Below are positions 4,215 to 29,559 of a stretch of DNA of 64,000 nucleotides, piece by piece. The position numbers were made by a program, and so were the translations under genes. The stretch is from Planctomycetota bacterium (GTDB lineage: Bacteria > Planctomycetota > UBA1135 > UBA2386), in assembly GCA_965223545.1 (NCBI GenBank), contig OZ245006.1, positions 6,880,001-6,944,000 of the forward strand. The letters are read 5' to 3'. The notes beneath the pieces were generated by a model. The model searched no databases. It worked only from the letters and a program-made list of their open reading frames with translations, and had not been told where the DNA came from. Every line of letters starts with the position of its first letter. Position 1 is the stretch's first letter.

Positions 4215-6779
4215 TTATCGCGAGCCGAGCCGCAGGCGCGTCGCCGATGAGAACGCCCACCCGCCCGGCGCGGCCACGTCGCTGACCGCCGCCTGCAAGT
4301 ACACCTGCCAGCCGACGAACGTCGGATTGAACGGCAGCGGCACCGCCCAGCTCGTCGCGCCTACCGAGGCCGTGCGCGTTGGCAGCTCGAGAAGCGGTGC
4401 CACGTGCAGCGCGCATCCCCCGAATCCCATTGGGCGCAGCGCGACCGGGAGTGAGGCCCCGCTCCACGTGGCGTCGGATACACCGAGGAGCGCGACCGCC
4501 GGCACGTTGCGCGCGGTGGGGCCGAGCGTGAACGCACCCGCTCGACCGAGCACGGGGCGACCGCCGGTCCAGCTCGCGCGGAGCGGGCCTCTGCCGACGC
4601 CGCACGCGACGCCGAAGGTGGTCACCGCGGCGTTGGCCGTGGGATCGCGGTAGAGGTTGACGTAGCCGGCGTTCCACGGGCCGCCAACGGGGGCGGCGGC
4701 CGCGACCGTCGCGCCGCCCGCGCTCGGCACGCGCATCAGCGCCAAGTGCCGCCCGAACGCGTCGCCGGGGCCGCCGTTGCGCGCCGAGAACAGCACCGTG
4801 CTCGCGTCGGTACCGGACAACACCCACACCTGGTTGGTCGCCGGGTCGGAGGCCGCGAAGTCGTCGGTTCCGTCGCCGTCCCAGTCGGCACCGGTCGCCA
4901 ACTCGGTGCCGCCCGGCCACGTGGGGAGCGAGCGCGCGACGGTTCCGGTGGCGCCGGAGATCAGCTCCAGCATGCCGGGGCGTGCGGCCCAGAGATCGGC
5001 GACGCCGTCGCCGGTGCGGTCGCCGGCGTCCGCGTAGCCGTTGGTTGCCGGCAGGGTGAACAGCACCGAGCCCAAGGCGCTCGAGTAGACGGCGCCGTCC
5101 AGCATCACCTCGCGTTCGCCGTCGCCGTCGAGGTCGCCGACCGACAGCAGGTGCGCGGTCACTGCGGGCCACACGGGTGCGAGCGGGATGCCGGTGCGGC
5201 CGGACAGAATCAGGGTCGAAGGGCCCACCGAGACGACCACGTCGGGAACGCCATCCGCGTCCCAGTCGGTTCCCGCGGCGATGTGGCGGCCGAAGGCGGT
5301 GTTGGCGTTGGTGACGTCGAGCAGCCGCGCGCCGCCCGCGCCGTAGATCGAGACCCTTCCCGAGCCACCGCCCCCGGCGCCGACCGCGACGTCGACCCGG
5401 CCGTCGCCGTCGACGTCGCCGGCGGGGGAGATGCTCATGAAGCCGGAGGAGCTCGAGGGCGTCCGTGGCGCGAAGAGCAGGCGGCCGTCGCCGCCGTCGT
5501 GGACGCTCAGCACCGCTTCGTGCCCGCGCAGCGGATCGAAGCGCAGCTCGCCGCGCGCGTAGTCGCCGATCCCGTCGCCGTTGACGTCACCCACCGACTC
5601 CAGCGCCAGCGTCGCGCCCGTCCTGCTGCTGGGCGAGCTGGTCTCCAGCCCCGAGCGCAGGCTGACGATCTCGATTGCACCCGGGGTGCCGAGCGCCACG
5701 TCGTCGAAACCATCGCGATCCACGTCGGCGACCGCTGCGGCGCTGCTCGCGACGAATGCCGCGCCGTCGACGTAGGAGCCGAGAAACGTCTTGAACAGAG
5801 GCAGCCACACGGACCCGGCCGCGGTGAGCAGCGGTCGCGGCTCGCCATTGCCGGCAAAGCGACCGATCGCCGCGACCCCGGTCAACACCCGCGCCACGCC
5901 ACACGTCGTGCAAGAGCCGGTGCCGTTCCAACTCGCGATGAGCGCTCCGGTCTGGCCGGAGTACACCCGCAAGTAGCCGGCGGATGCGGGCGGCGGACCG
6001 AACTCCTGCTGGTGAAAGGCAAAGTCGTCGTCCAACCCGTCGCCGTCGAGGTCGCCCATGGCTCCGACGACCGACGCGGGAGCCGCCACGTGCTGCGAGT
6101 GGCTGCGCAAGGACGCGCCGGTCACGCCGCTGTGCAGATCGATGGCCGCCGTGGCGTTGCTGGCGTCGGCCCAGCTGAGACTGACGTCCGCCCGGCCGTC
6201 GGCATCGACGTCGCCGCAGAACGCGGCGGCGAGCACGGTCCCCGGCGCGTTCGCAGTGTGCACCACGGCACCGGTTCGCCCAGATACGACCTGCCAGTCG
6301 GAACCCATGGACGCCGCGCAGAGCAAGTCATCGTGGCCATCGCCGTCGAAGTCTTGCCCCGCGTCCAGCAATGGCGCCGCGCCGAGGGTGTGCAGCACCA
6401 GCGCGCGACTCACCGAGTAGCACCACAACGTGCCGGCGGCCTCGACCCACACGTCGCCGGTGCCGTCGGCATCGGCGTCGCCAGCGGCGATCAGGCGGTC
6501 GATGCGCGTGCCGGCGGGCACCGGCGGCAGCCAGCGTCGCACCAGTGCGCCGGTGCGGGCGGAGTACGCGCGCATCTCGGCCAGTGGCGCCACGGCCGCG
6601 ACCGCGATGTCGTCGGCGCCGTCGAGATCGGCATCGCCGAGTGAGACCAGCGTCGCCGCTGTGCCATCGAAGCCGGGGATGGACAGCTGTTGCAGCACCT
6701 GCTGGCCGGTCACGCCGGCGCTGCCGAGCCCGCAACAGAGCGCGATTCTCCAGAACACCGACTTCGACCCGAGACTCAT
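4215..6779 (-). CDS. Secreted integrin-alpha-like FG-GAP repeat protein with shared C-terminal domain
   Basis: Many GDxDGDGxxD Ca-binding repeats and (V/Y)SGxTG motifs; C-terminus YLQAAVSDVAAPGGWAFSSATRLRLGSR. Confidence 0.9.
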   Translation of the reverse strand: MSLGSKSVFWRIALCCGLGSAGVTGQQVLQQLSIPGFDGTAATLVSLGDADLDGADDIAVAAVAPLAEMRAYSARTGALVRRWLPPVPAGTRIDRLIAAGDADADGTGDVWVEAAGTLWCYSVSRALVLHTLGAAPLLDAGQDFDGDGHDDLLCAASMGSDWQVVSGRTGAVVHTANAPGTVLAAAFCGDVDADGRADVSLSWADASNATAAIDLHSGVTGASLRSHSQHVAAPASVVGAMGDLDGDGLDDDFAFHQQEFGPPPASAGYLRVYSGQTGALIASWNGTGSCTTCGVARVLTGVAAIGRFAGNGEPRPLLTAAGSVWLPLFKTFLGSYVDGAAFVASSAAAVADVDRDGFDDVALGTPGAIEIVSLRSGLETSSPSSRTGATLALESVGDVNGDGIGDYARGELRFDPLRGHEAVLSVHDGGDGRLLFAPRTPSSSSGFMSISPAGDVDGDGRVDVAVGAGGGGSGRVSIYGAGGARLLDVTNANTAFGRHIAAGTDWDADGVPDVVVSVGPSTLILSGRTGIPLAPVWPAVTAHLLSVGDLDGDGEREVMLDGAVYSSALGSVLFTLPATNGYADAGDRTGDGVADLWAARPGMLELISGATGTVARSLPTWPGGTELATGADWDGDGTDDFAASDPATNQVWVLSGTDASTVLFSARNGGPGDAFGRHLALMRVPSAGGATVAAAAPVGGPWNAGYVNLYRDPTANAAVTTFGVACGVGRGPLRASWTGGRPVLGRAGAFTLGPTARNVPAVALLGVSDATWSGASLPVALRPMGFGGCALHVAPLLELPTRTASVGATSWAVPLPFNPTFVGWQVYLQAAVSDVAAPGGWAFSSATRLRLGSR

Positions 6780-6786
6780 GCCCCCA

Positions 6787-7188
6787 TCATACCGTCTCGG
6801 CGGGCTGGATCAGGTCCCACAGGTTGCCGTAGAGGTCCTCGAAAACGGCGACCGTGCCATACGGTTCGGTGCGCGGGCCGCGCGCGAACACGATCCCCTT
6901 GGCCGTCATCTCTTCGTAGTCGCGCCAGAAGTCATCGGTACCGAGGAAGAACGAGACGCGTCCGCCGGTCTGATTGCCGATGAACGCCGTTTGACCGTCG
7001 TTGGATGGGCGCGCGAGCACGATCCCCGTGCCGTTCGAGCCCGGCGGCGCGACGACGACCCATCGCTTGCCCTGCTCGGGCACGAACGTGTCCTCGAGCA
7101 GCTCGAAGTGCAGGGTCCGGGTGTAGAAGTCGATGGCTTCGTCGTAGTCGCGCACGACCAGGGCCACGAGCAGGATGGACTGCTTCAT
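6787..7188 (-). CDS. VOC/glyoxalase family protein
   Basis: ALVVRDYDEAIDFYT..L.F; GNQTGGRV; EPYGTVAVFEDLYGNLWDLIQ. Confidence 0.93.
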   Translation of the reverse strand: MKQSILLVALVVRDYDEAIDFYTRTLHFELLEDTFVPEQGKRWVVVAPPGSNGTGIVLARPSNDGQTAFIGNQTGGRVSFFLGTDDFWRDYEEMTAKGIVFARGPRTEPYGTVAVFEDLYGNLWDLIQPAETV

Positions 7189-7317
7189 CCCGGTCGATGC
7201 TGCGCGCGGCGGCCGTCCGCAAAAAGAAAGAATTGGTGTCGGTCAGCGCTGTCGTGGATCGTTGGCAGTGCAGCGGTGGAATGCGTTCCACTTCGTTTTG
7301 CGTGTGAGGATCGTGTC

Positions 7318-8910
7318 GTGACCCTGGTGATCACTGGCCGCATTGCCCCGATGGCCTCTGGCGATCCCGCGGCGTCGTTCACCGGCTCCGTTTTCCTCGC
7401 CGAGGGCCGCGTGCAGGCCGTGCGCGCCAGCGGCGCGCCGGAGCCGGCCGGCTTCGCCGAGGCGCCGCGGATCGACGTCGGCGCCGCGTTCGTCTATCCC
7501 GGCCTGTTGGACCTGCACTCGCACATCGGCTACGCGAGCATCCCGCTGTGGTCGGAGGACTCGCGGCCGACGCCGTTCTTGCACCACGACAACTGGCCCA
7601 ATGCGCGGAGCTACAAGTCGTCGGTGACCTGGCCGGCCTATCTGGTCGCGGCGGGGGCGCCGGAGGCGCTGCTGGTCTACGCGCAGGTGCGCGCGCTGGC
7701 GGGCGGCACGACCGCGATCCAGGGCTGGCCCTCGCGCAACCGCAATCCGCTCAATCGGCTGGTGCGCTCGGTGGACGACGAGGATCTCGGCACCGGCGAC
7801 ATGGTGCGGACTTCGGCGTTGACGCTGGACGACGACGAGCTGCGCGAGCGGGCAGAGCGGATGGAGCAGGGCTTCGGTTTCATCTACCACTGCGGCGAGG
7901 GGCAGAAGGGCAGCATCGTCACGCGCGAGTTCGACGACGTCGCCACGACCAACTGCCTGCGGCAAAACCTGATCGCCATCCACATGAACGCGCTCGACGG
8001 CGACGTGTTCCGGCAGTGGAAGGAGCGCGCGGAGCTCGCCGGTGACGATGGGCCGGGGACGTTGGTGTGGTCGCCGTTCTCCAACCTGTGGCTGTACGGC
8101 AGCGATGAGACCACCGATGTCGCGGCGGCGCGTGCCGCCGGCATCGGTGTGTGTCTGGGGACCGACTGGGGGCCGTCGGGGACCAAGAACCTCTTGGGTG
8201 AGCTGAAGGTGGCGCGGATCTGGTCCGAGCGCGAGGGGTTGGGGCTGACCGCGTTCGACCTGGCCCGCATGGTGACCGCGACCCCCGGCGATGCGCTCGC
8301 GCGGCATTGGGGTGCGCAGGCCGGTCGCCTTGTCGAGGATGCGGTGGGGGATGTCGCGGTGATCGACGCGCGCGACGAAGATCCCTGGGAGAACCTGGTG
8401 CTCGCGCAGGAGGAGGACGTTCTCCTGGTCTGTGTCGAGGGCGAGGCCCGCTTCGGGACGCGCACGCTGATGCGTGCGGCGGGCCAGCGCGCGACGACGT
8501 CGGTCGATCTCGGCAACCGCAACAGCCGGCACGTCGCGTTGGTCGACCCCGCCGATCCCGACAAGAGGTGGTACTGGTCGCGCGTGCTGCGCGCGATCGA
8601 TGACGTGCGCAAGGATCCCGCCGGGGCGTTGGCCATGGGACTCCACGCGCGGCGGTTGGCCGCCGACAACGAGCGCGCGCGCCGGCGCGACGGGGTGCCG
8701 CAACCGCGGGGTGCCGCCGGCGACCCGCTCATCCTCGAACTCGACATGCCGGGGCCGGGCGGCGTGCGCGCCGGCCCGCCGCCCGATCCCGCCAGCGTGG
8801 TCGTGCCCAAGGCGCCCGGCCTGCGGCACGACCGGCCGTGGCGGGCGACGTTGACGGGCCGGGCCCATCACGGCGGCGTGCTCGACGAGCTCGACCGTTT
8901 CTACGAGTAG
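7318..8910 (+). CDS. Metal-dependent amidohydrolase, deaminase-like subtype
   Basis: GAGGA RBS then GTG 7318; PGLLDLHSH (HxH), GGTT, YHCGEG (HxxE), IHMN, LGTDWGPSG (catalytic Asp). Confidence 0.88.
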   Translation: MTLVITGRIAPMASGDPAASFTGSVFLAEGRVQAVRASGAPEPAGFAEAPRIDVGAAFVYPGLLDLHSHIGYASIPLWSEDSRPTPFLHHDNWPNARSYKSSVTWPAYLVAAGAPEALLVYAQVRALAGGTTAIQGWPSRNRNPLNRLVRSVDDEDLGTGDMVRTSALTLDDDELRERAERMEQGFGFIYHCGEGQKGSIVTREFDDVATTNCLRQNLIAIHMNALDGDVFRQWKERAELAGDDGPGTLVWSPFSNLWLYGSDETTDVAAARAAGIGVCLGTDWGPSGTKNLLGELKVARIWSEREGLGLTAFDLARMVTATPGDALARHWGAQAGRLVEDAVGDVAVIDARDEDPWENLVLAQEEDVLLVCVEGEARFGTRTLMRAAGQRATTSVDLGNRNSRHVALVDPADPDKRWYWSRVLRAIDDVRKDPAGALAMGLHARRLAADNERARRRDGVPQPRGAAGDPLILELDMPGPGGVRAGPPPDPASVVVPKAPGLRHDRPWRATLTGRAHHGGVLDELDRFYE

Positions 8911-8937
8911 CCGAGAGTGGGCGCTTAGGTATCGACG

Positions 8938-10821
8938 ATGAAGAAGTCCCTCCAGCGCGCGCAGGCCGGCACGGAGCTGCGGCAGTTCGCCGTGCCGAGC
9001 GAGCCGGTCTACCCGATCGCCCACTTGCAGGCCGACGAGCGCGAGCGGTTGGTGGAGACGTTCGTGCGGCTGCTCGAAGGCGTCTACGTCCACCTGCGGC
9101 TCAAGCGCTCGATGTACGGCAAGGATCCCGTGCAGCGTCTGCGGTTGTTGGGGCAGCGCGCCGCTGCGATGGACGAACCCGACTTCCACGCCGAGCTGTC
9201 GGCGATCCTGGTCGACCTGCGCGATGCACACACGCGCTACGCGAGCATCGCGGAGCGGCAGGGGTTGGTGGCGGTGCTGCCGTTCATGGTCGAGCTGTTC
9301 GGTGGCGCCGACGCGCCGCGCTTCTTGGTGTCCAATGTCGTCGAGGACGAGCCGGCATTTGCCGGCACCGAGTTCGCCGCCGGAGTCGAGATCGAATGGT
9401 GGAACGCGGTGCCGATCGCACGCGCGGTCGATCGCTACGCCGAGCGCGAGACCGGCGGCCGGCGCGACGCGCGCCGGCAGCGCGCACTCGAGTCGCTGAC
9501 CTTTCGCGCCCTCGAGTACGGTCCGCCGCCGGACGAGTACTGGGTGCGCGTCGGCTACCGGACCCCGTCCGGGCAAGCGCACGAGGTGCAGGTCGAGTGG
9601 CGTGTGGTCGAGGTCGGCGCGGGCGACGAGACGCGCAGCGAGCAGCCGGACTCCGCCATGGCCTATGCCGCCAACCCCGCCGCCGAAGCGGTGCGCCGCG
9701 CCAAGACGCTGCTGTTCGCTCCGGTGGTTTGGGACGACCACCGGCGCGGGGTGGCCAAGCGGCTGCCGCGGAATCGAGCCGTGCGCGCCGGCGAGTGGCT
9801 CAGCGGCCGGTTCGCCGGCCTGGTCTCCGCCAAAGAGGTCGAGACGGATGCCGGCACGTTCGGCTACCTGCGGCTCTGGAGCTTCGACTTGATCGACGAC
9901 TCCGGTTTCGTCGATGAAGTGATCGAGCTGCTGGATCGGTTGCCGCGGCGCGGGTTGATCGTCGACGTGCGCGCCAACCCCGGCGGGCTGATCTGGGCCG
10001 CCGAGCGGCTGCTGCAGCTGTTCACGCCGCACCGCGTCGAGCCGACGCGCTTCAGCCTGCTCGCCACCGACCTGACGCGCGAGATGGCCGAGCTGCCGCA
10101 GAACGCGCTGCAGCTCGAGCCCTGGCGGCGCAGCCTGGCGGACGCGGTCGCCAACGGCGAGCCGTTCTCGCGTGCTGTGCCGCTGACTCCGCCGCGACTG
10201 TGCCAGAGCACGGGGCAGCGCTACCCGGGGCCGGTGGTGTGCGTCGCCGACGGCAACACCTACTCGGCCGGTGACTTGTTCGCCGCCGGCTTCGTCGACA
10301 ACCGCATCGGTCCGCTGATCACCATCGGCGAGGCGACCGGTGCCGGCGGGGCCAACGTGTGGCGCCGCGCCGACGTCGAACGCGCGCTTGCCGGTGCGCG
10401 GCAGCCGTTGCCACCGTTGCCGGAGAGTGTGTCCTACACGCTCTCGTTTCGGCGCGCGGTGCGGGCAGGCAGCGCGTCGGGCACGTTGATCGAGGACCTC
10501 GGCGTGCCCGGCCACCTCCGCTATGAGTTGACGCGCGAGGATCTGACGGGAGGCAATCGCGACCTGATCGAGTTCTGTGGCCGGCTGCTGGCCTCGGAGC
10601 GGTCGACCGACTTGCAGGTCGAGCGCGTGGGCGACGCTGGCTTGAAGGTGTCGGCCGAGCGATTGGATCGCATCGATGTGTACGTCGACGGCCGCCCGGT
10701 CGGGTCGAGTGCACCGGACGAGCTACCGCCCGCCATCGAGCTGGGCGAATCGTGGTCGGCGGCGGAGGTGCGCGGGTTCGTCGGCCAGAGCCTGCGCCAG
10801 CGCCGGCTCATTCACCGTTGA
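8938..10821 (+). CDS. S41 family peptidase (tricorn/CTP-like core), no signal peptide
   Basis: LRDAHTRY; GYLRLWSF; LIVDVRANPGG; TYSAGDLFAAGF (catalytic Ser); GEATGAGGANV. Confidence 0.9.
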   Translation: MKKSLQRAQAGTELRQFAVPSEPVYPIAHLQADERERLVETFVRLLEGVYVHLRLKRSMYGKDPVQRLRLLGQRAAAMDEPDFHAELSAILVDLRDAHTRYASIAERQGLVAVLPFMVELFGGADAPRFLVSNVVEDEPAFAGTEFAAGVEIEWWNAVPIARAVDRYAERETGGRRDARRQRALESLTFRALEYGPPPDEYWVRVGYRTPSGQAHEVQVEWRVVEVGAGDETRSEQPDSAMAYAANPAAEAVRRAKTLLFAPVVWDDHRRGVAKRLPRNRAVRAGEWLSGRFAGLVSAKEVETDAGTFGYLRLWSFDLIDDSGFVDEVIELLDRLPRRGLIVDVRANPGGLIWAAERLLQLFTPHRVEPTRFSLLATDLTREMAELPQNALQLEPWRRSLADAVANGEPFSRAVPLTPPRLCQSTGQRYPGPVVCVADGNTYSAGDLFAAGFVDNRIGPLITIGEATGAGGANVWRRADVERALAGARQPLPPLPESVSYTLSFRRAVRAGSASGTLIEDLGVPGHLRYELTREDLTGGNRDLIEFCGRLLASERSTDLQVERVGDAGLKVSAERLDRIDVYVDGRPVGSSAPDELPPAIELGESWSAAEVRGFVGQSLRQRRLIHR

Positions 10822-10851
10822 CGCGAGGACACCGTTTCACCGAGGAGACCC

Positions 10852-11793
10852 ATGGTTGGATCGTACGACAAGCTGGTAGTGGCCGCGCACCGCGGCAAGA
10901 CCGCGGCCGAGCTGTTGGCGGCGCCGCCGGACGCGATCAAGGGCGTGTCGGCCGCCGACGCCACTCGCCTCGAGGAGGCGTTCGGCATCGACACGGTGGA
11001 GGAGATGGCGCGCAGCCGCTACTTCGAGCACTCGCGCGCGATCCTGGCCGGCGACGGCACGCCGCCGTTCGATCCGGGGCCGCCGCCGGATTGGCAAGAG
11101 CAGTTTGGCCAAGCGCCAGTGCAGCACTACCTGGGCCACCCGAGTGGACGTTTTCGCATCGAGTTCGGGCCGGTGTACTACCGCGGGCGCTTGGACGGCA
11201 CCGCGCGGGTGCTCGTGCTCGGCCAGGACCCGTCGACCAACGAGATCCTGGCGCACCGGATCTTCATCGGCCACTCCGGCCAGCGCATCCAGCGGGTGCT
11301 CGCCAAGCTCGGCATCGAGCGCTCCTACGTGATGCTCAACACGTTCTTGTTCAGCGTGCACGGCCAGTTCGACACCGAGCTGCGGAACATCTCGGAGGAG
11401 CCCGAGGTCGAGGGCTTCCGCCACGAGTGCCTCGACAGGCTGATGGACGACAACAACATCGAGGCCGTGCTCGCGTTCGGCGTCGGCGCCCGGCACGCCG
11501 CGCAGCGGTGGAACGGCCAGGGGAACGTCCCGGTGTTCGAGCTCACGCATCCCGCCGCGTCCGACAACCAGGTGCTGGCCTCTTGGAACCAGCACTTGCC
11601 GGCGATGCTGGCCGCGGTCACGCCGGATGCCGGCGCCGCCGCCGACCCGACGCCGTGGGCGGCGCCGCTGGGCGCCGCCGACATGGCCCCGATCCCGGCC
11701 TTCGACGTGCCCTTCGGCGTGCCCGCATTCCACCTCTCCGGCGGCGGCCACAGCAACCGCAACGGCAACGACCAGATCGTCTGGACCGCGTGA
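10852..11793 (+). CDS. Uracil-DNA glycosylase superfamily protein with N-terminal HhH-like fusion domain
   Basis: GAGGAG RBS; VLVLGQDP motif A, FIGHSG, YVMLN, THPA motif B; N-terminal ~70 aa PPDAIKGVSAADATRLEEAFGIDTVEEM. Confidence 0.85.
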   Translation: MVGSYDKLVVAAHRGKTAAELLAAPPDAIKGVSAADATRLEEAFGIDTVEEMARSRYFEHSRAILAGDGTPPFDPGPPPDWQEQFGQAPVQHYLGHPSGRFRIEFGPVYYRGRLDGTARVLVLGQDPSTNEILAHRIFIGHSGQRIQRVLAKLGIERSYVMLNTFLFSVHGQFDTELRNISEEPEVEGFRHECLDRLMDDNNIEAVLAFGVGARHAAQRWNGQGNVPVFELTHPAASDNQVLASWNQHLPAMLAAVTPDAGAAADPTPWAAPLGAADMAPIPAFDVPFGVPAFHLSGGGHSNRNGNDQIVWTA

Positions 11794-11802
11794 GCCTCGC
11801 AG

Positions 11803-12789
11803 CTAGACCGGAAACGGTCCCTCTTCGAACGTCTGTCCTGGGTGATAGCCCTTCGCGCCAACTGCGGCGCTGAGTTGGCTGAAGGGGGACGTGTTGTTCC
11901 GAAGGCACTCGATCGCGTGGGCGAAGGTGACTCTTGGCTCCCAACCGAGGTCCCGACGCGCGGCGGCGTTCACGTAGACCCGGTCGATTCCCTCGAACAT
12001 CCGCCATCCTCGTCGCTCGTACTCGTCCCGATAGTCGGTGTACTGCAGCACGACGCCTTCGGGGTCGTCTCGGAGGCGGGAGAGGTCCGGCCTCTTGAAT
12101 GGCGACGTCGCGCTCAGGATGTATCGCCCAAACCCGAGCTGTGTTGCTCGCTGGAGAGCGAGCAGGTGTGCCTCGACGGCGTCCTCCAGGTCGAGCCGCC
12201 GATAGAGCAGCTCGTTGACCTTCAGGTTCAGGTCTTCGAAGTTCGCCCGCGCTGCCGCGCTGTCGTCTTCCTCGGGAAAGAACCGGGAGGTTCTCAAGAT
12301 CAAGCACGGCAGACCGTGCAGGAAGTGGAAGAGATGACAGAGCTCCTCGGCGGCGACCTTCGTCGTTCCGTAGATGTTCTTCGGAATGGGCCGGACCTCT
12401 TCGGTGATCCATGCGGCGGGCTCCCCGGGAGGAGGAACAAGCGCGCGCCCAAAGGTGCTGGTCGTCGAGGTGAAGATGAAGCACTGACACCGCTGCGCGA
12501 CGGCTTCCTCCAGCAAGTTCAGGGTTCCGGTGATGTTCGAGTCGACGAACTGCTGGCGGGAGTGGGTGGCGACGTGGGGCTTGTGCAGCGTGGCCGCGTG
12601 GAGAATCGCGTCGCATCCAGAGACGGCATCGGCGACCGCCGCTCGATCGGAGACCGACCCCACGACCTCGGTGTAGGGGCTCTCGATCAGGTCGAACCCG
12701 CGGGGTTCGTGAGGACCCGCGCGAAGTGCACGCATGAGCCCTTCGCCGAGATGGCCGGAGCTTCCAGTCACGAGAACTTTCATCTGCAC
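11803..12789 (-). CDS. NAD-dependent epimerase/dehydratase (extended SDR)
   Basis: VLVTGSSGHLG; HAA; FTSTTSTFG; YGTTK. Confidence 0.93.
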   Translation of the reverse strand: MQMKVLVTGSSGHLGEGLMRALRAGPHEPRGFDLIESPYTEVVGSVSDRAAVADAVSGCDAILHAATLHKPHVATHSRQQFVDSNITGTLNLLEEAVAQRCQCFIFTSTTSTFGRALVPPPGEPAAWITEEVRPIPKNIYGTTKVAAEELCHLFHFLHGLPCLILRTSRFFPEEDDSAAARANFEDLNLKVNELLYRRLDLEDAVEAHLLALQRATQLGFGRYILSATSPFKRPDLSRLRDDPEGVVLQYTDYRDEYERRGWRMFEGIDRVYVNAAARRDLGWEPRVTFAHAIECLRNNTSPFSQLSAAVGAKGYHPGQTFEEGPFPV

Positions 12790-16628: not shown

Positions 16629-19628
16629 ATGACTGAGGCTGGCCTAGAGACGCTAGACTCCAAACTATCAGTGTCCGACAGCTCCGCAAAGCGAGACTTC
16701 CTGTTCTATCGTCAAACCGGAGAGCTAGCCGCGCTTGAGCGAGCGCTTCGCGCGGCAAAGCCAGAGCTACTAGAACATGCCTACTCGCTCACGCGGCATC
16801 GGGCAGATGCCGCGGACTTGGTGCAGGAAACCCTGCTCATCGCAGCCATGCGACACGAGCAGTTCCGGTGTGAAGCCGAGTTCTCGGCCTGGCTGCGCGG
16901 CATCCTGCGCAACCTGACGCGCAAACATCGGGCCCGCCGCGGGCCGCGCCCACTGAGCCTGCACGCTCCATCGGGCCCGCAGCAGGCAGAGCCTCTGCAA
17001 TCGGCACTTAACCACGAACTACGCCAATGCCTAAGTGCCGCGATCGCACGACTCTCTCCGCGCTACCGCGAAGTGCTCGAACTATACCTGGCTGGTGAAA
17101 CCACTTCCCTTGGCATTGCAGAGAAGCTAGGCCGCAGTGCCAGCACGGTACGTAGCCAGTTGGAAAGAGGCCTACGGAAGCTCCGTCGACATCTCCCGAA
17201 GTCACTCGCACCACTAGTAGTCGCGCTGCTCGTCGGCGGTCCTGCACGTGCAAGCCTCCCGCCAAGGCGTCCACACGCTCGTCTATTGCCGGTCTTCGGC
17301 GGCCTAGCCCTGCTGATCCTACTGACTGGGCTGAGGCTGGCGCTTTGGCCCCGCGGGCCTCGAGCAGAGCCGGCGTTCGCATCCGATCGCAGCCCCCTCT
17401 CCTCTACATCGCGCGAGGTGGACGCCCAAGCTAACAAAGACTCGCTACCACGCTCCGAACGCCGGGCTAACGAACAGGCAGGCGTCACGGTAGCCTTGAG
17501 CTGGCCGGACGGTAGACCCGCCGCCGGCGTGGCGCTTGTGCTGGAGACTGACGCTAGGCCCGGGACCCAACCATTACTTACACACTTTGATACCTGGCGC
17601 CATTCCATCACCGACACCGAAGGCGAAGCGCATTTTCTCAACCTGCCCAGCGGAGCAACACGCCTCCGGCTCGATGACGTCTCCGTTCTTCACAGACTAG
17701 AGCTGCGTCCCGGGCAGAGACATCGGATTGAGAAGCGCGTAGAAACGACCTTCGAAATTGCAGGCACAGTGCGCAATGGACTCGGTCTGCCGGTTGCCGG
17801 GGCCGAGATCTGGATCAGCGGTAGTCGACGGATGATGACACCGGGCTACATTGCCTGTAGGAGTGACGAGCTAGGTCGCTTTGCTGCACCACTATTCTTG
17901 GCGCGCATCGATTTTGAATTATGGGCCGCAGCTGCTGGTATCGGAGTCTCCAACTGCTATCGCCCCCAAGCCGCTAGGCTACGCTTGGAGCAAGACCTGG
18001 TAGTGCGCAGTTCAGCGCGGCGTATCGAAGGCCTGTTACTTGGACCACAGGGTTCTGGCGTTGCTGGTATCGTAGCGCTCTATCCCAAGCGCTCTGCCGA
18101 ATATGCGCCACCGATTCAATATGCGCAAACGGACTCCCGCGGGCGCTTCACCTTCGAGCATCTGACCGCCACCGGCTATCGGCTGGCTGGAACAGCGCCC
18201 GGATTGGCTGGATCGACTGTCGAGCTCGACCTCTCAGAAAACGAGCGGAGGAATCTACTTCTGCAGCTCACGCAGGGTGTTCTGATCAGCGGCCAGGTTC
18301 ATGGTTTTGAGCTGCAGCAACTTCAGCGACTGCGTGTTGGCGGACGGTCCCCGGCCTCGCTCTTGCGTGCTCCCGAGCAGTTCTTGTTGCTACGAAGCGC
18401 AGCAGTAGCTGCTGATGCGAGCTTTCGCGTAGGTCCGTTCCCTCCCGGAGCAACCCTTCTTGGGGTGATGGATATTGAGCGTCCACATGGACCATTGGAC
18501 AGTCTGCTGCTGGAGATTCCTGCGGCGGGAGCGCTACGCTGCGACTTCTTTGCACAGGCGCGGGCACCGTGGCGCGTTCGAGTGCAAACACCATCCGGTG
18601 CTCCCGCTGCCAAGCTCTGGGTAGCGCTTGCTCATCCAACTCAGAAGCCAAGCGACGGTCGCTATACAGCGCTTGCCTCGACCGATGCCGAGGGCTTGGC
18701 AGAATTTGCAACTCTCCCTCAGCATCCGCTACAGGTGTTCGTGCTCAGCGAGCCAACAGCGCGCCTGCCACTAGCTTTCGCCCGTGACGTGATGCCAGGC
18801 AGCAAGCTGGTCTTAGTCCTTCCTCAGCAGCTCGAAGCTGGCCGCGTCTCCGGGACTTTGACTCAAGCTCCAGCGGACTTCAGAACTGGAGTAAGCCTAC
18901 GCCTGCGTCACGAGGGGAGCTCTGCTGCGCGGCTGCTCGAGGTGGCCGCATCGGAGCGGAGATTTTCTTTCCAGAAGATCCCGCCTGGTAACTACGTGTT
19001 GGAGCTCATTGGCCAAAGCTCTCCCCGCGCGGCAGTAGCGCTAGCCAAAGCCGTCGTTACATCGGCTAGTGCTATAGACCTCGGAGAGCTGCGCGTTCCG
19101 GAGTGGGGCGTGCTACGGGTTCGTGCCCCGCGGAACTCGGCTGACTCCGTGCTCCCCTTCTCTGTTCGCCAGTCCGATGGTTCTCTGCTGCTCGCCGCGC
19201 AGCTACTAGGAAGCCAGCTGCAGGAGTTGAAGCTGCCGACAGTAGCACTTCGGCTGGAGTTCCTCGACACGGCTGGAATCCTGCGCTCGCATCAGCTCAT
19301 TCTCTCAAGAGATGAGCGTCGAGAGCTTATGCTCGATACCGGAGCTGGGCACCCCGTTCGCTTATTGTTTCCTTTCTCCGAAACTCAAGGTAAGAGCACG
19401 GTGAGCGGCAGCGCTGTGGTCACAATCCGCAGCCAGAAAACCGTCTCAGATCGCCACTTCTCGGCAGTCTACCTCGATGGAGGGCTCTATAGCGTGAGCA
19501 CCGACTTAGCTCCTGGAGCTTTCCAGATCTCCTTCATCTCTACCTGGAACCGTCCTCTTCAACGCACGATCGAGGTTCTAGAGCGACACGAGCTGCAGGA
19601 GTTCCGCTTGCCGCTTGTGCGCCTGTAG
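16629..19628 (+). CDS. ECF sigma-70 factor fused to TM segment(s) and carboxypeptidase-regulatory-like beta-sandwich repeats
   Basis: Region 2 DAADLVQET..FSAWLRGILRN; region 4 LSPRYREVLEL..IAEKLGRSASTVRSQLERG; TM FGGLALLILLTGLRLALW; GTVRNGLGLPVAGAEI and TDSRGRFTF repeats. Confidence 0.88.
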   Translation: MTEAGLETLDSKLSVSDSSAKRDFLFYRQTGELAALERALRAAKPELLEHAYSLTRHRADAADLVQETLLIAAMRHEQFRCEAEFSAWLRGILRNLTRKHRARRGPRPLSLHAPSGPQQAEPLQSALNHELRQCLSAAIARLSPRYREVLELYLAGETTSLGIAEKLGRSASTVRSQLERGLRKLRRHLPKSLAPLVVALLVGGPARASLPPRRPHARLLPVFGGLALLILLTGLRLALWPRGPRAEPAFASDRSPLSSTSREVDAQANKDSLPRSERRANEQAGVTVALSWPDGRPAAGVALVLETDARPGTQPLLTHFDTWRHSITDTEGEAHFLNLPSGATRLRLDDVSVLHRLELRPGQRHRIEKRVETTFEIAGTVRNGLGLPVAGAEIWISGSRRMMTPGYIACRSDELGRFAAPLFLARIDFELWAAAAGIGVSNCYRPQAARLRLEQDLVVRSSARRIEGLLLGPQGSGVAGIVALYPKRSAEYAPPIQYAQTDSRGRFTFEHLTATGYRLAGTAPGLAGSTVELDLSENERRNLLLQLTQGVLISGQVHGFELQQLQRLRVGGRSPASLLRAPEQFLLLRSAAVAADASFRVGPFPPGATLLGVMDIERPHGPLDSLLLEIPAAGALRCDFFAQARAPWRVRVQTPSGAPAAKLWVALAHPTQKPSDGRYTALASTDAEGLAEFATLPQHPLQVFVLSEPTARLPLAFARDVMPGSKLVLVLPQQLEAGRVSGTLTQAPADFRTGVSLRLRHEGSSAARLLEVAASERRFSFQKIPPGNYVLELIGQSSPRAAVALAKAVVTSASAIDLGELRVPEWGVLRVRAPRNSADSVLPFSVRQSDGSLLLAAQLLGSQLQELKLPTVALRLEFLDTAGILRSHQLILSRDERRELMLDTGAGHPVRLLFPFSETQGKSTVSGSAVVTIRSQKTVSDRHFSAVYLDGGLYSVSTDLAPGAFQISFISTWNRPLQRTIEVLERHELQEFRLPLVRL

Positions 19629-19846: not shown

Positions 19847-20248
19847 CTACGCCGACTTCGCGCCGGACATCAGGCCGAGGATCTTCGGCAGCTCGCACAG
19901 CAGCACCACCGCCGTCAGCGCACCGGCACCGATCACCATCGGATCGGACAGCTGAGCGCCGCCGCCGATGAACACGTGGAAGGCGAAGATGTTGGCGACG
20001 ATCGGCGCGAGGATCAAAAGGCCGATGGTGCGCGTGCGTGGGATGGCGACCAGGATGGCACCGATCAGCTCGCACACCTTGACGAAGGTCATGTAGCCGG
20101 TCGGCACGAGCGCTGCGAAGAAGTGCTCGGTTGCCGAGCCTTCGGGTGGCGGTTCCTCCTCGGGCATCATGTCGAGCAGAAACATCGAGCTGGCGGCCAA
20201 GAACAGCAGGCCCAACAGCACGCCCGCGATGGTGGCGATGTTCTTCAT
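19847..20248 (-). CDS. DoxX-like membrane protein
   Basis: VLLGLLFLAAS..TGYMTFVKVCELIGAILV..GLLILAPIVANIFAFH; four TM segments. Confidence 0.8.
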   Translation of the reverse strand: MKNIATIAGVLLGLLFLAASSMFLLDMMPEEEPPPEGSATEHFFAALVPTGYMTFVKVCELIGAILVAIPRTRTIGLLILAPIVANIFAFHVFIGGGAQLSDPMVIGAGALTAVVLLCELPKILGLMSGAKSA

Positions 20249-20402
20249 GCTGACGAGCATGGTCTTTGGCGGCCTTCCAGTCACGGCCGGAGTTGGACCT
20301 CTCCACCGGGGGTGGCGAGCGGCAGATCGATCGGTTCCACTCGTCTCCCTGCCCCGGACGCACTCCCGTCGCCTGAGTGAGGGGGACGAGATCACTGCCA
20401 CC

Positions 20403-23240
20403 ATGGTGTCCAGCCGCGCTGTTGTTCTGATCGCCGTCGGGTTGGCGGGGGTCGTCATCGCCGGCCTGGTTTGGCGGTGGGGGGATGCGGTGCCGGTTGC
20501 TGATGCCGGCGCCGCGAACGATCGAGCCAGCGCCGGAGCCCCTCTGGCGGGCTCGGCCGAGGAGAGGGTGGCCGGCGCGGGGCGCGAGCGCGCCGTGGTT
20601 GTCGCGCCGCTCGCCTCCGATGATGCTCTGCCGCCGGGGCTGCGCGGCCGCGTGCTGCAGGATGGGGTGCCCGTGCCGTCGTGCGTGGTGGAGGTGTGCC
20701 GGTCCTTCGATCCGGGGGGGCCGCCGCCGCTGGCGGTGGCGACCGCCGCCGCCGACGGTCGGTTCGTGGTCGGCGGGCTGCCGCCAGGCCTGGTCGTGCT
20801 GCAGTTTTCCAGTGCCAGCCTGCCGCGGCCTGCGTTGCGCGCGGACATCCAAGTGCCCGCCGATCGGTTCGCCGAGCTCGGCGACATCGACCTGCCGCAG
20901 CCGGCGCGCCTGCACGGGCGGGTCGTGGACGGCGGCGGCCGACCGGTCGCGGGCGTGCGCGTGTTCCACCACCATCGCCCGGGCTACTCGACGACCCGGT
21001 TCGACCGAGGCACCGCCGAGCTTGGCGCAGTGCGCGATGCGCACGTGCAGACCGACCTGGACGGGCGGTTCGCCTTTGGTCGGCTGCCGGCTGGAGACCA
21101 CGCGGTACTGGTCGAGCCCGCCGCCGCGGAGCGCTACCGCGACCAGCGCGTGTCGCTGGAGCTCGTGCCCGGAGAGGATCGAGATCTCGGGGACCTGGAG
21201 CTCGTCGATGGTCAGGTACTCGTCGGGCGCGTCGTCGATCCGCAGGGTCGAGGCGTGGCGGCGGCTCTGGTGGCGCCCGCTTCGCGGCGCGGCGAGATCG
21301 CGCGGCGGCGCGGTGCGCGCACCGCGGACGACGGGCGTTTCGTCCTGCACGGCTTGCCTCCCCGTGGCTTGGTGTCGGTCGAGGCCGACGGCTACTTGCC
21401 GCGGACGCAGGATCGGGATGGGGCGCCGTCGCCGATGTTGATCCGGATCGAGCCGGCGTTCGCGGTGCGTGGGGTCGTGCGCGGCGCCAAGGGTGCGCCG
21501 ACGGTGGTCGAGGTGATGGGCCGATCGCGACCGAGTGGGATCCACCGGGCCGGCGTGGATGGCGCGTTCTCGATTCCCGGCCTCGCAGCCGGTGCACACC
21601 GCGTGCGCGCGCGTGCGCCCGGCGTGGGGTCCTCAGCGGTCGTCGAGGTGGAGGTGCCGCGAAGTGGCGACCAGCCGGTCGTGCTCGACATCGTGCCCGG
21701 CTTGCCCGTCACCGTGCGCGTGGTCGACGACACGGGTCTGCCGATCGCCGGTGTGCGGGTCGTGCGCGATCCTGGCATCGAGCGTTCTCCGCGGCTCTAC
21801 CGTGCCGGTGCCCGTGGGCTCACCGGGCGCGTGTTGCGCGCGGCGAGCGGCGCGGGCGCGCAGGTCGCGCGCACCGATATGAGCGGTGCCGCCATCTTGG
21901 CGATCGAAAGCGGGGTGGCCTTCGCCATCGGCGCGCGCCACGAGGGCCACCTCGACAACGTCCTGATCGTGCGCGCCGACGAGCGCCCGGCGACGGCCGA
22001 GACGTGGACGTTGACCATGGCGCGCGGTGGTCGGATCAAAGGCGTCATCGACGACGCCTCGGGCCGGCGTCGGTTCGCGCTCCGCGCGGCGCTGTGGCCG
22101 GTCGGCGTCGAAAAGCCGACCGAGCAGCAGACCCGGCTCATGGTCGACGATGCCGGCGTGTTTGCCAGCGCGCCATTGCAGCCGGGGCGCTACGTCGTCT
22201 CGGTCTATCGCTACAACATGACGTGGCAGGATGCGCCGTCGCGGCGCCTGCCCGACGTCGTGCCCCTGCTCGGACACGGCACCGATCCGCGCGGTTGGCA
22301 GGAGGTCGAGGTGCTCCCCGGCGAGGACACCGAAGTCACTCTCGCGGTCGAGCCGTTGGGAACGGTCGCTGGCGTCGTGCGCCAAAACGGCACACCCGTC
22401 GGAGGCGCGGTGGTCTACGCAGTCGAGACCGGTGCACGGGTCGCGCCGGGAAGAACGGCGTGGACCGATCGCGGTGCGCACGAGCGGGTGCCGTTTGCGG
22501 TGACCGATGTCGAGGGGCGCTACTCGTTCTCCTACGTGGCTCCGGGACGGTGGCGCCTGTTCGCGCTGGCGCCCGGCGGTGACTATCCCAAAGGGCCGGT
22601 AGAGGTCGTGGCGACCGACTTCGGGCAGCACTGGACCCGCGACTTCGAGCTGCCGGCGACGCGCGTTCGCGGTCGCTTTGTGTCGGATCAGGGGGGCGCG
22701 CACGGCGGGCGTGGGCTGCGTGCGTACTTGTTTCCGCTGCACGCGGCCGATCGCGATCCCTACTACCAGCCACACCACGCGCTGCCGCAGACCGCCGAGC
22801 GTCGCGCGCAGCCGCTGGACGGCGAAGGGGCGTTCGCGTTCGCGAGTGTGCTGCCGGGCCGCTGGGTGTTGCGGATCACGGACGGTGAGCGCTCGATCGC
22901 GCAGCGCGTGGTGAGCGTCGCCGACACCGACGTCGACCTGGGCGTGCTCCGCCCGACCCAGGTGGTCGAGGCGGTTTTGCACTGCGCCGACGCGCGCGTC
23001 GCGGGCGCGTGGGTGCGGCGCCCGGTCGAGGGCAGCGAGCGCGGGGTGTTCGTGCAGACCGTAGCGCTCGACGACGGGGTGCTGCGCCTTGCGGTCCCCG
23101 CCGGGCGCTACCTGATCGAACCCTTCGAGCGCAGCCAGTGGTGGGGCGTGGGTCTCAGCGGCAAGTCTCTCGATCAGGTCGTGGCCGTCGAGATCGATGC
23201 CGCCGGCGCAGCCGTGCCGGCGGTGTTGGCGGTGCGCTGA
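20403..23240 (+). CDS. Membrane-anchored carboxypeptidase regulatory-like domain repeat protein
   Basis: N-terminal TM; repeated GRVVDxxGxPVAGxxV and TDxxGRF motifs. Confidence 0.85.
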   Translation: MVSSRAVVLIAVGLAGVVIAGLVWRWGDAVPVADAGAANDRASAGAPLAGSAEERVAGAGRERAVVVAPLASDDALPPGLRGRVLQDGVPVPSCVVEVCRSFDPGGPPPLAVATAAADGRFVVGGLPPGLVVLQFSSASLPRPALRADIQVPADRFAELGDIDLPQPARLHGRVVDGGGRPVAGVRVFHHHRPGYSTTRFDRGTAELGAVRDAHVQTDLDGRFAFGRLPAGDHAVLVEPAAAERYRDQRVSLELVPGEDRDLGDLELVDGQVLVGRVVDPQGRGVAAALVAPASRRGEIARRRGARTADDGRFVLHGLPPRGLVSVEADGYLPRTQDRDGAPSPMLIRIEPAFAVRGVVRGAKGAPTVVEVMGRSRPSGIHRAGVDGAFSIPGLAAGAHRVRARAPGVGSSAVVEVEVPRSGDQPVVLDIVPGLPVTVRVVDDTGLPIAGVRVVRDPGIERSPRLYRAGARGLTGRVLRAASGAGAQVARTDMSGAAILAIESGVAFAIGARHEGHLDNVLIVRADERPATAETWTLTMARGGRIKGVIDDASGRRRFALRAALWPVGVEKPTEQQTRLMVDDAGVFASAPLQPGRYVVSVYRYNMTWQDAPSRRLPDVVPLLGHGTDPRGWQEVEVLPGEDTEVTLAVEPLGTVAGVVRQNGTPVGGAVVYAVETGARVAPGRTAWTDRGAHERVPFAVTDVEGRYSFSYVAPGRWRLFALAPGGDYPKGPVEVVATDFGQHWTRDFELPATRVRGRFVSDQGGAHGGRGLRAYLFPLHAADRDPYYQPHHALPQTAERRAQPLDGEGAFAFASVLPGRWVLRITDGERSIAQRVVSVADTDVDLGVLRPTQVVEAVLHCADARVAGAWVRRPVEGSERGVFVQTVALDDGVLRLAVPAGRYLIEPFERSQWWGVGLSGKSLDQVVAVEIDAAGAAVPAVLAVR

Positions 23241-29472: not shown

Positions 29473-29559
29473 GGTGGGATGGCAGAGTGGCCGAATGCGG
29501 CAGCCTTGAAAGCTGTTGAGGCCTTCGGGTCTCCGGGGGTTCGAATCCCTCTCCCACCG
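29473..29559 (+). tRNA. tRNA-Ser (TGA)
   Basis: GGTGGGA..TCCCACC acceptor stem; GCAGC-CTTGAAA-GCTGT anticodon arm; long variable arm; GTTCGAA; followed by TCA rather than CCA. Confidence 0.95.

Follow-up and report, generated by a model that had tools for sequence, protein, structure and literature searches.

A deaminase-type amidohydrolase, a CPAF-like protease and a BdiUng-family DNA glycosylase predicted to form one accessory module in bacteria of many phyla

Among glycosylases that resemble uracil-DNA glycosylase (UDG), Brig1 is reportedly an anti-phage enzyme. The main texts of two preprints describe UDG-like Brig2, which defends against phages with 5-substituted uracils or modified thymidines (bioRxiv 10.1101/2025.10.29.685425), and Brig3, which excises 5-hydroxymethylcytosine (5hmC) and is supplied with it by an operon partner, BapA, that takes the glucose off glucosyl-5hmC (bioRxiv 10.64898/2026.02.25.707755); these precedents make a division of labour between a glycosylase and a helper plausible. 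Another described member of the superfamily, BdiUng (Blr0248) from Bradyrhizobium diazoefficiens, is known from Protein Data Bank (PDB) entries 5gn2, 5gn3, 5gnw and 5grk, and the main text of that study reports a dimeric, Ugi-insensitive enzyme that prefers single-stranded DNA, excises uracil, 5-hydroxymethyluracil (5hmU) and xanthine in vitro, and carries a GQDPA motif A whose Ala, where family 1 has Tyr, makes the pocket open at C5 (Chembazhi et al. 2017, PMC5449639). We describe here a relative of BdiUng that does not stand by itself. It is encoded in a window, by which we mean the whole stretch of 64,000 nucleotides that was analysed, of a Planctomycetota bacterium (GCA_965223545.1, contig OZ245006.1, C1:6880001-6944000; host genome of 8.1 Mb in two contigs), where the glycosylase gene (U) follows genes for a deaminase/chlorohydrolase-type amidohydrolase (A) and a CPAF-like S41 serine peptidase (S). 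Conserved linkage and gene fusions in many phyla lead us to predict that the three make up one functional unit.

According to the open reading frame (ORF) listing and its translations, A occupies positions 7318-8910 (530 aa, GTG start), S positions 8938-10821 (627 aa) and U positions 10852-11793 (313 aa), all on the forward strand. The three ORFs are intact and co-directional, with gaps of only 27 nt between A and S and 30 nt between S and U. The start of A at 7318 has GAGGA 6-7 nt upstream of its GTG and matches that of full-length homologues, such as the one at locus L005, which aligns over residues 1-529. A simple, crude hydropathy scan shows no hydrophobic segment at the N terminus of A, S or U, the highest Kyte-Doolittle mean over 19 residues anywhere being 1.34. 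The initial annotation of this stretch, made from its letters alone, had pointed to three co-oriented genes with these gaps, opposite-strand flanks and no signal peptide, and had named the motifs HxH, HxxE, His and Asp in A, the Ser of YSAG in S, and GQDP in U; the ORF listing, Pfam and the hydropathy scan confirm the arrangement, and the motifs are present and conserved among homologues.

The case for a single unit comes from the relatives of U, 509 of which were found in a one-genome-per-species scan and the best 80 loci of which were examined. Counts anchored on U refer to 79 of these loci plus the window; locus L025 was left out because no U ORF was called there, although A, S and U were all seen by tblastn. 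In 28 of the 80 rows a single ORF of about 1100-1390 aa holds A fused to S, and in 10, the window included, the two are separate adjacent genes; in 6 a contig end truncates S, and in 13 A occurs without S. Fusion also links the other pair of genes: 5 of the 11 longer homologues of U are U-A fusion proteins of 845-864 aa, and 7 of the 8 longer homologues of A are A-S fusions, so that the fusion orders seen are U-A and A-S. When the search was reversed and started from S41 homologues in metagenome contigs (best 80 of 546 loci, 26 of them with at least 3 kb on both sides), A and U were both found in 16 of the 26, A only in 5 and neither in 5. The order of the genes varies among loci from many phyla (A-S-U, U-A-S, divergent, convergent), and no other conserved neighbour emerged after clustering all ORFs of the U-anchored loci. 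The initial annotation had staked its reading on homologues co-occurring in other genomes, and they do so across phyla.

Two counts speak against so simple a picture, since neither A nor S lies in the available DNA in 23 of the 80 rows, and A is nearby in only one of five distant in-phylum homologues of U. Nevertheless, two kinds of fusion together with an adjacency that is kept independently of gene order exclude chance, and A, S and U are best predicted to form one functional unit, as the initial annotation had supposed. We give practically no credence to the opposite view, that the window merely brings together three unrelated genes whose adjacency is functionally meaningless: it is already refuted by the A-S fusions at 28 loci, the five U-A fusion proteins, the adjacency maintained in many phyla with shuffled order and the positive reciprocal search from S41. 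One Flavobacteriaceae metagenome-assembled genome has A-S in three pieces of 289, 519 and 249 aa (L047:8961-12324) where its relatives have one ORF of about 1110 aa, which reflects either a decaying copy or assembly errors.

The glycosylase itself can be placed with some precision. U scores 41 bits against the Pfam UDG model (cut-off 24.3), and a profile built from 19 full-length homologues matches BdiUng (5gn2) at E 1.7e-52 over residues 96-306, every other UDG in the PDB appearing at E 4.5e-4 or worse. Its AlphaFold2 model, with a predicted local distance difference test (pLDDT) of 84.4, finds 5gn2_A in Foldseek at E 1.4e-17, with a TM score of 0.77 and 33% identity, and both searches assign residues 96-313 (window 11137-11793, forward strand) to a UDG domain of the BdiUng/Blr0248 family. 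In all 85 family members, the five U-A fusions among them, GQDP (124-127), E131, N163 and H233-P234 are kept, whereas position 128 is Ser in 53, Ala in 32 and Tyr in none; these positions map onto D57, A59, E62, N94 and H168 of BdiUng. Membership of U in the BdiUng family thus follows from similarity over the whole domain, from a motif A in which a small residue comes after GQDP, and from the presence of the strand Asn and of both catalytic residues, Asp and His. Given the invariance of the motifs and the Ser or Ala at position 128, U is in all probability active as a glycosylase and has ample room around C5 in its pocket.

The first 95 or so residues of U (window 10852-11136, forward strand) form a separate domain that is conserved across full-length homologues and marks what we call the long form of U. 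The S41 gene goes with this form, being found at 41 of 51 loci with long-form U and at 3 of 29 with the short form (simple counts, as the loci are interrelated). AlphaFold2 models the domain as four short helices, with pLDDT 95-97 over residues 11-50. Hints as to its fold are weak, namely Pfam HHH_5 at E 0.078 and a protein-atlas score of 0.75 to a DUF4332/HHH_5 cluster, the best protein-atlas scores for the domain (0.75-0.77) being below the reliable range; it is possibly helix-hairpin-helix-like and DNA-binding. Longer BdiUng-family proteins without an amidohydrolase domain were also seen: P0123 (649 aa), which has two UDG stretches and is thus a tandem glycosylase, and P0124 and P0126 (about 595 aa each). 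At the Thiodiazotropha locus L023, the module is preceded at a distance of 5 kb by a second, ordinary UDG-superfamily gene (L023:1975-2583), which scores 101 bits against Pfam UDG, and a gene for an RHS-repeat protein follows just downstream of the module.

The amidohydrolase is a more distant relative of known enzymes. A barely passes the Pfam Amidohydro_1 cut-off (26.1 bits against 25), and in NCBIfam it gives weak matches to guanine deaminase, chlorohydrolase and SsnA models, all 20 of them far under their cut-offs; the best, guanine deaminase, reaches 33.5 bits against a cut-off of 375.4, and no cut-off is attained for any named deaminase or chlorohydrolase model (guanine deaminase, SsnA, TRZ/ATZ, 8-oxoguanine deaminase, cytosine deaminase). 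A profile of 49 sequences, however, matches AtzA in the PDB at E 1.5e-28, as well as homologues of methylthioadenosine/S-adenosylhomocysteine (MTA/SAH)/adenosine deaminase, 8-oxoguanine and isocytosine deaminase, guanine deaminases and TrzN, and the top Foldseek matches of the AlphaFold2 model (pLDDT 90.4) belong to the same deaminase/chlorohydrolase subgroup. Amidohydrolases carry HxH after strand 1 of the barrel, HxxE after strand 5, a His after strand 6 and an Asp after strand 8. The corresponding residues of A (H67 and H69, H191 and E194, H222, D283) are invariant in 49 homologues, in keeping with the metal and catalytic motif of the COG0402-like deaminase/chlorohydrolase subgroup, of which A can be regarded as a catalytically intact member on these residues. 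Since the profile and the fold fit the subgroup and no named enzyme model comes near its cut-off, A represents a new subfamily within it. The TIM-barrel core spans roughly residues 1-390, and the less conserved C-terminal extension (about 390-530) is the counterpart of the linker in A-S fusion proteins. By its subgroup, A would act on heteroaromatic rings, hydrolytically exchanging an exocyclic substituent, nitrogen or halogen, for oxygen; its nearest solved relatives include triazine hydrolases, which also release N-alkylamines.

The protease, finally, scores 61.4 bits against Pfam Peptidase_S41 (cut-off 24) and 69.3 bits against the NCBIfam CPAF model NF033424, under that model's 250-bit cut-off, and its family profile finds CPAF (CT_858) as the closest solved relative at E 4e-14; S is accordingly classified here, from its scores, as a relative of CPAF and not as a CPAF equivalog. 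Among 37 homologues of S, no change is seen at S443 (the Ser of YSAG) or E519, and at least 90% retain H98; presumably this His and Glu are the remaining two residues of a CPAF-type catalytic triad. A Pfam score over the gathering cut-off and a conserved Ser nucleophile place the protein in peptidase family S41, and its residues mark it as a catalytically intact CPAF-like serine protease that, to judge from the lack of a hydrophobic N-terminal segment in the crude scan, would be cytoplasmic. Recognition of free C-termini is a known trait of the S41 family. S probably has a PDZ domain: PF17816 (PDZ_4) is on record for several A-S fusions, and was recovered here for one S41 paralogue only and not for P0002. 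A complex prediction for S with U gave a score of 0.00 in a run without controls, which says nothing either way.

The protease is at the same time the least constant partner of the module. Where U and A occur without S41, a Peptidase_C25 gene directly follows A in L064 and L083, a large DUF7362-DUF7379-caspase (Peptidase_C14) protein lies just upstream of U-A in L084 (4343-7939), which likewise has no S41, and Lon stands beside the U and A pair in two related Acidimicrobiia loci; in the other eight of the 13 loci with A only, no adjacent protease was found. Conversely, genome G181 of the same phylum encodes two paralogues of the S41 subfamily without A or U (L090:134-5137 on G181:C58 and L089:6502-8397 on G181:C2), one of them directly after a 956-aa TPR-containing protein. 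The replacement of S41 by C25 or caspase-type peptidases and the existence of S41 paralogues without A or U indicate that the protease is semi-independent and exchangeable, and the CPAF-like cytoplasmic protease seems to be a reusable module that also serves other partners. DUF7362-DUF7379 was seen in addition as a separate gene beside an astacin-like peptidase, downstream of A-S (L181:8865-10373), and may be a further optional component.

Carriers of the module are soil and marine bacteria from at least ten phyla, yet within the phylum of the host it is rare. In samples that include many incomplete genomes, U was found in 3 of 41 related genomes and in 6 of 401 genomes of the phylum, the S41 type in 2 of these 401; among the relatives the long form occurs only in the host itself (G000), and G023 has a short U together with A. 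In a quick maximum-likelihood tree of the U core, sequences from Verrucomicrobiota, Rhodothermota, Gemmatimonadota and Acidobacteriota fall together inside well-supported clades. Flanking genes are shared in only two small groups among the ten Bacteroidota loci examined, and they differ even among Flavobacteriaceae. The host has two further UDG-superfamily genes of its own (G000:C1:7091200-7091640 and G000:C1:3093969-3094439, one of them within a 527-aa ORF). Rarity, a U tree that cuts across taxonomy, differing flanks and these additional host glycosylase genes all argue that we are dealing with what is, as judged from genome comparison, an accessory module that moves horizontally.

In the window, the module is flanked by opposite-strand genes, upstream for a VOC/glyoxalase protein (6787-7188) and downstream for an NAD-dependent epimerase (11803-12789), both assigned by Pfam. 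Farther out are FG-GAP proteins, an extracytoplasmic function (ECF) sigma factor fusion, regulators and metabolic genes, and the transposase nearest to the three genes is 20 kb away. A promoter/terminator scan found no promoter-like site, and terminator-like sites were at chance level; for riboswitches or leader RNAs, Rfam returned nothing on window positions 6700-12000 at E <= 1 but one 16-bit chance match, and at gathering thresholds only tRNAs on 18 related loci. The ECF sigma factor (16629-19628) has CarboxypepD_reg domains in a long C-terminal region fused to it, and is followed by a 1023-aa protein rich in the same domain (20169-23240), in a segment where the GC content falls to about 0.61. 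A DDE transposase gene (31653-33461, reverse strand) sits in a lower-GC stretch (about 0.60-0.62, 30-38 kb), shortly after a tRNA gene (29473-29559); this may be an island that was inserted and has nothing to do with the trio. A further tRNA gene is at 1230-1303.

The initial annotation had also suggested a conflict or defence role, and here the searches gave it no support. No PADLOC family was found for A, S or U at E <= 0.1 in PADLOC-DB 2.0.0, a release of 2023 that precedes the Brig proteins, and among 115 neighbouring ORFs of 11 loci PADLOC produced four matches at E <= 1e-10, all of them generic (an ArsR-type helix-turn-helix (HTH) protein, a GlgB-like protein, a radical SAM protein and FtsH). 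Conflict-type genes do adjoin the module at a minority of loci, a tally that was made without a control set and is hence no claim of enrichment: TIR, nSTAND1 and eCIS_core genes are found beside the module in L031, TIR-WD40 and HTH-TPR in L007, a type I restriction HsdR in L055, HTH-NB-ARC-TPR in L147, and RHS or PT-HINT toxins in L023 and L048. Contractile-injection genes (eCIS_core, DUF6519, Baseplate_J, tail sheath) adjoin it at L018:6470-14182, L031:412-7786 and L027:9383-10948. An association with extracellular contractile injection systems (eCIS) as a general feature was considered and rejected, as BLAST of the eCIS proteins against all 80 loci gave no cases beyond these three and the sole eCIS_core gene of the host (G000:C1:3926331-3926564, in a 1311-aa ORF) is about 3 Mb from the window. 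Membership in Brig1 or Brig3 was likewise considered; no Brig chain appeared in the PDB sequence or fold searches, and no Brig sequence was directly compared.

What, then, might the three proteins do together? Enzymes of the subgroup to which A belongs replace an exocyclic amino, N-alkylamino or chloro group with oxygen, and such chemistry on cytosine-, 5hmC- or guanine-type bases, or on N-linked adducts of these, would give uracil, 5hmU and xanthine, the very three substrates reported for BdiUng. It is on this account tempting to propose a system that strips and then excises DNA bases. A would convert an amino-bearing or N-substituted base (of the cytosine, 5hmC or guanine type, or with a bulkier adduct) into an oxo-base removable by U; S would clear the target of a covering or attached protein or peptide, or would activate the complex; and U would then create abasic sites, the purpose being an attack on foreign DNA with modified bases in parallel to Brig3-BapA. 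We rank this proposal first while holding it only tentatively. A stricter version of it, in which the S41 enzyme trims an amino acid, peptide or protein from a base (a phage hypermodification or a DNA-protein crosslink), A cleaves the remaining exocyclic C-N bond to leave uracil, 5hmU or xanthine, and U excises the product, is distinctly doubtful; if true, it would provide the first amidohydrolase-fold enzyme acting on bases in polymeric DNA and the first protease built into a base-excision machine. Control of the module by proteolysis, which the initial annotation had proposed, is pure conjecture.

A number of observations pull the other way. We know of no TIM-barrel amidohydrolase shown to act on a base within a polynucleotide. 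No result of the analysis constrains the role of the protease, for which trimming, activation or an effector function would all do, and the S41 subfamily also occurs without A or U. The window copy lies outside any defence island, with mobile and defence genes absent within about 10 kb of the trio; most neighbours at the other loci are ordinary transport or metabolic genes, the codon usage of A, S and U (GC at third positions 0.84-0.94) is at host level, and among viral contigs none of 61 candidate stretches was a relative. Moreover, in the main text of their study the authors of BdiUng read it as a repair enzyme, one that left C-to-T mutation in an E. coli ung mutant undiminished (PMC5449639). 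Several of these points lend themselves to a second explanation, in which the same chemistry serves the cell's own DNA in the accessory repair of bulky N-linked damage (protein or peptide crosslinks to exocyclic amines) or of bases deaminated in the single strands or hairpins of GC-rich genomes. S would trim the protein, A would release the remnant to leave uracil or xanthine, U would excise it and base-excision repair would complete the process, an order that would employ all three activities and end on substrates of BdiUng. BdiUng was indeed characterised as a repair-type UDG with a preference for single strands and loops, from a family of mostly high-GC organisms according to the same main text (PMC5449639), and the window is about 70% GC; ordinary neighbourhoods, host-like codon usage and the lack of PADLOC matches fit as well. 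Yet a gene so rare and patchy in the phylum and among the host's relatives, and moving between phyla, is not what a housekeeping function would lead one to expect in a host that already has two other UDG genes, nor was a LexA/SOS link or a repair-gene neighbourhood seen, L054 alone having a gene for an AP_endonuc_2/xylose-isomerase-like TIM barrel nearby. We place this self-directed repair second, as possible though unlikely.

The attack on foreign modified DNA keeps its first place also when compared with two schemes in which A would not work on DNA at all. Conversion of nucleotides by effectors is an established theme in defence, as exemplified by dCTP deaminase and by RdrB of RADAR with its adenosine-deaminase fold. 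One could thus imagine a nucleotide-pool suicide or abortive infection in which S, as the switch, sets A to deaminate dCTP, hm-dCTP or dGTP, and U shreds the replicating DNA that has taken up the products; relatives of A do act on free bases, nucleosides and nucleotides, and the known substrates of U are deaminated bases. Such a mechanism would have no need of a fusion between A and the glycosylase, and neither a sensor domain, nor PADLOC similarity to known defence deaminases, nor a defence-island context was found, so that we consider it improbable. The other scheme dispenses with DNA altogether and has the module degrade or detoxify a small molecule made up of a peptide, an amino-heterocycle and an N-glycosidic bond, for instance a peptidyl-nucleoside antibiotic, with one type of bond for each enzyme. 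Cleavage of peptide, exocyclic C-N and N-glycosidic bonds would suit a compound of this kind, and some neighbours are efflux pumps, major facilitator superfamily transporters, a glyoxalase/bleomycin-resistance-type protein (window 6787-7188; L063) or an aminoglycoside phosphotransferase (APH)-type kinase (L063). To our knowledge, however, every characterised enzyme of the UDG superfamily acts on DNA. BdiUng is described in the main text as acting on DNA oligonucleotides (PMC5449639), the DNA-contact and catalytic motifs of U are invariant, its long form has an extra and possibly DNA-binding helical domain, and the module has neither a biosynthetic cluster nor a transporter as a conserved neighbour; little credence can be given to this explanation either.

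The initial annotation called the system a candidate for an undescribed one, which needs a qualification for one of its parts. The glycosylase family is known, with a crystal structure, and belongs to enzymes that excise deaminated bases, as had been anticipated, in view of the uracil, 5hmU and xanthine reported in the main text for BdiUng, the one member for which this activity is known, in vitro (PMC5449639); the assignment of A to the nucleobase/nucleoside deaminase and chlorohydrolase subgroup was borne out by the NCBIfam, profile and fold matches. No description of the trio, nor of the amidohydrolase-protease partnership, the fusions or the exchange of the protease, was found in the literature searched, which yielded the BdiUng paper, a review with a single mention of that enzyme and otherwise papers on unrelated subjects by their titles. 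The main text of the BdiUng paper has no 'operon', 'amidohydrolase' or 'genomic context' (PMC5449639), and amidohydrolase, peptidase and BdiUng are absent from the main texts of both Brig preprints (10.64898/2026.02.25.707755; 10.1101/2025.10.29.685425). To judge from this literature, what is new is the partnership, the fusions and the protease exchange, with a function that is predicted.

These findings change how the BdiUng family may be regarded. According to its main text, BdiUng was published as an extra repair glycosylase without a clear physiological role and without complementation of ung in E. coli (PMC5449639). Much of the family, by contrast, is not solitary but hard-wired, up to fusion, to a deaminase-type hydrolase and usually to a cytoplasmic protease, and this linkage offers a concrete and testable hypothesis for its real substrate. 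The module is a candidate second example, after Brig3-BapA, of a helper enzyme that widens the reach of a glycosylase. Should the hydrolase turn out to work on DNA or nucleotide pools, its superfamily, that of the amidohydrolases, would gain a new kind of enzymology, with possible use as a tool for base conversion; a module that instead repaired protein- or peptide-linked bases would constitute a new bacterial repair route.

With COG0402-type enzymes (AtzA/TrzN and the MTA/SAH/adenosine, guanine, isocytosine and 8-oxoguanine deaminases) A shares the fold and the HxH/HxxE/His/Asp set, but at only 13-19% identity; it differs from them in invariant residues of its own (W78, W93, Q135, R150, W251-S252...N256...Y260, W284) and in its C-terminal extension, and fusion to a protease or a glycosylase, as seen in members of its family, is absent from the named enzymes. 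S has the Ser nucleophile in common with CPAF (Chlamydia CT_858) and tricorn-type S41 peptidases, whereas it is predicted to be cytoplasmic, is non-chlamydial, and has relatives most of which are the C-terminal half of an amidohydrolase fusion. U agrees with BdiUng in having a motif A of GQDP followed by a small residue, in its catalytic Asp and His and in the Asn within the YVMxN strand, and departs from it in the extra N-terminal helical domain of about 95 residues and in its genetic tie to an amidohydrolase and an S41 protease. The Brig systems are anti-phage, whereas the module is known from sequence alone and its copy in the window is outside any defence island; its helpers are a metal amidohydrolase and a protease, where that of Brig3 is a glucosyl hydrolase. 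The pocket of BdiUng is open at C5, and Brig2 targets 5-substituted uracils. The module would resemble Brig3-BapA in that a UDG-superfamily glycosylase stands in one operon with an enzyme able to make its substrate, provided that A acts on DNA bases, as we infer.

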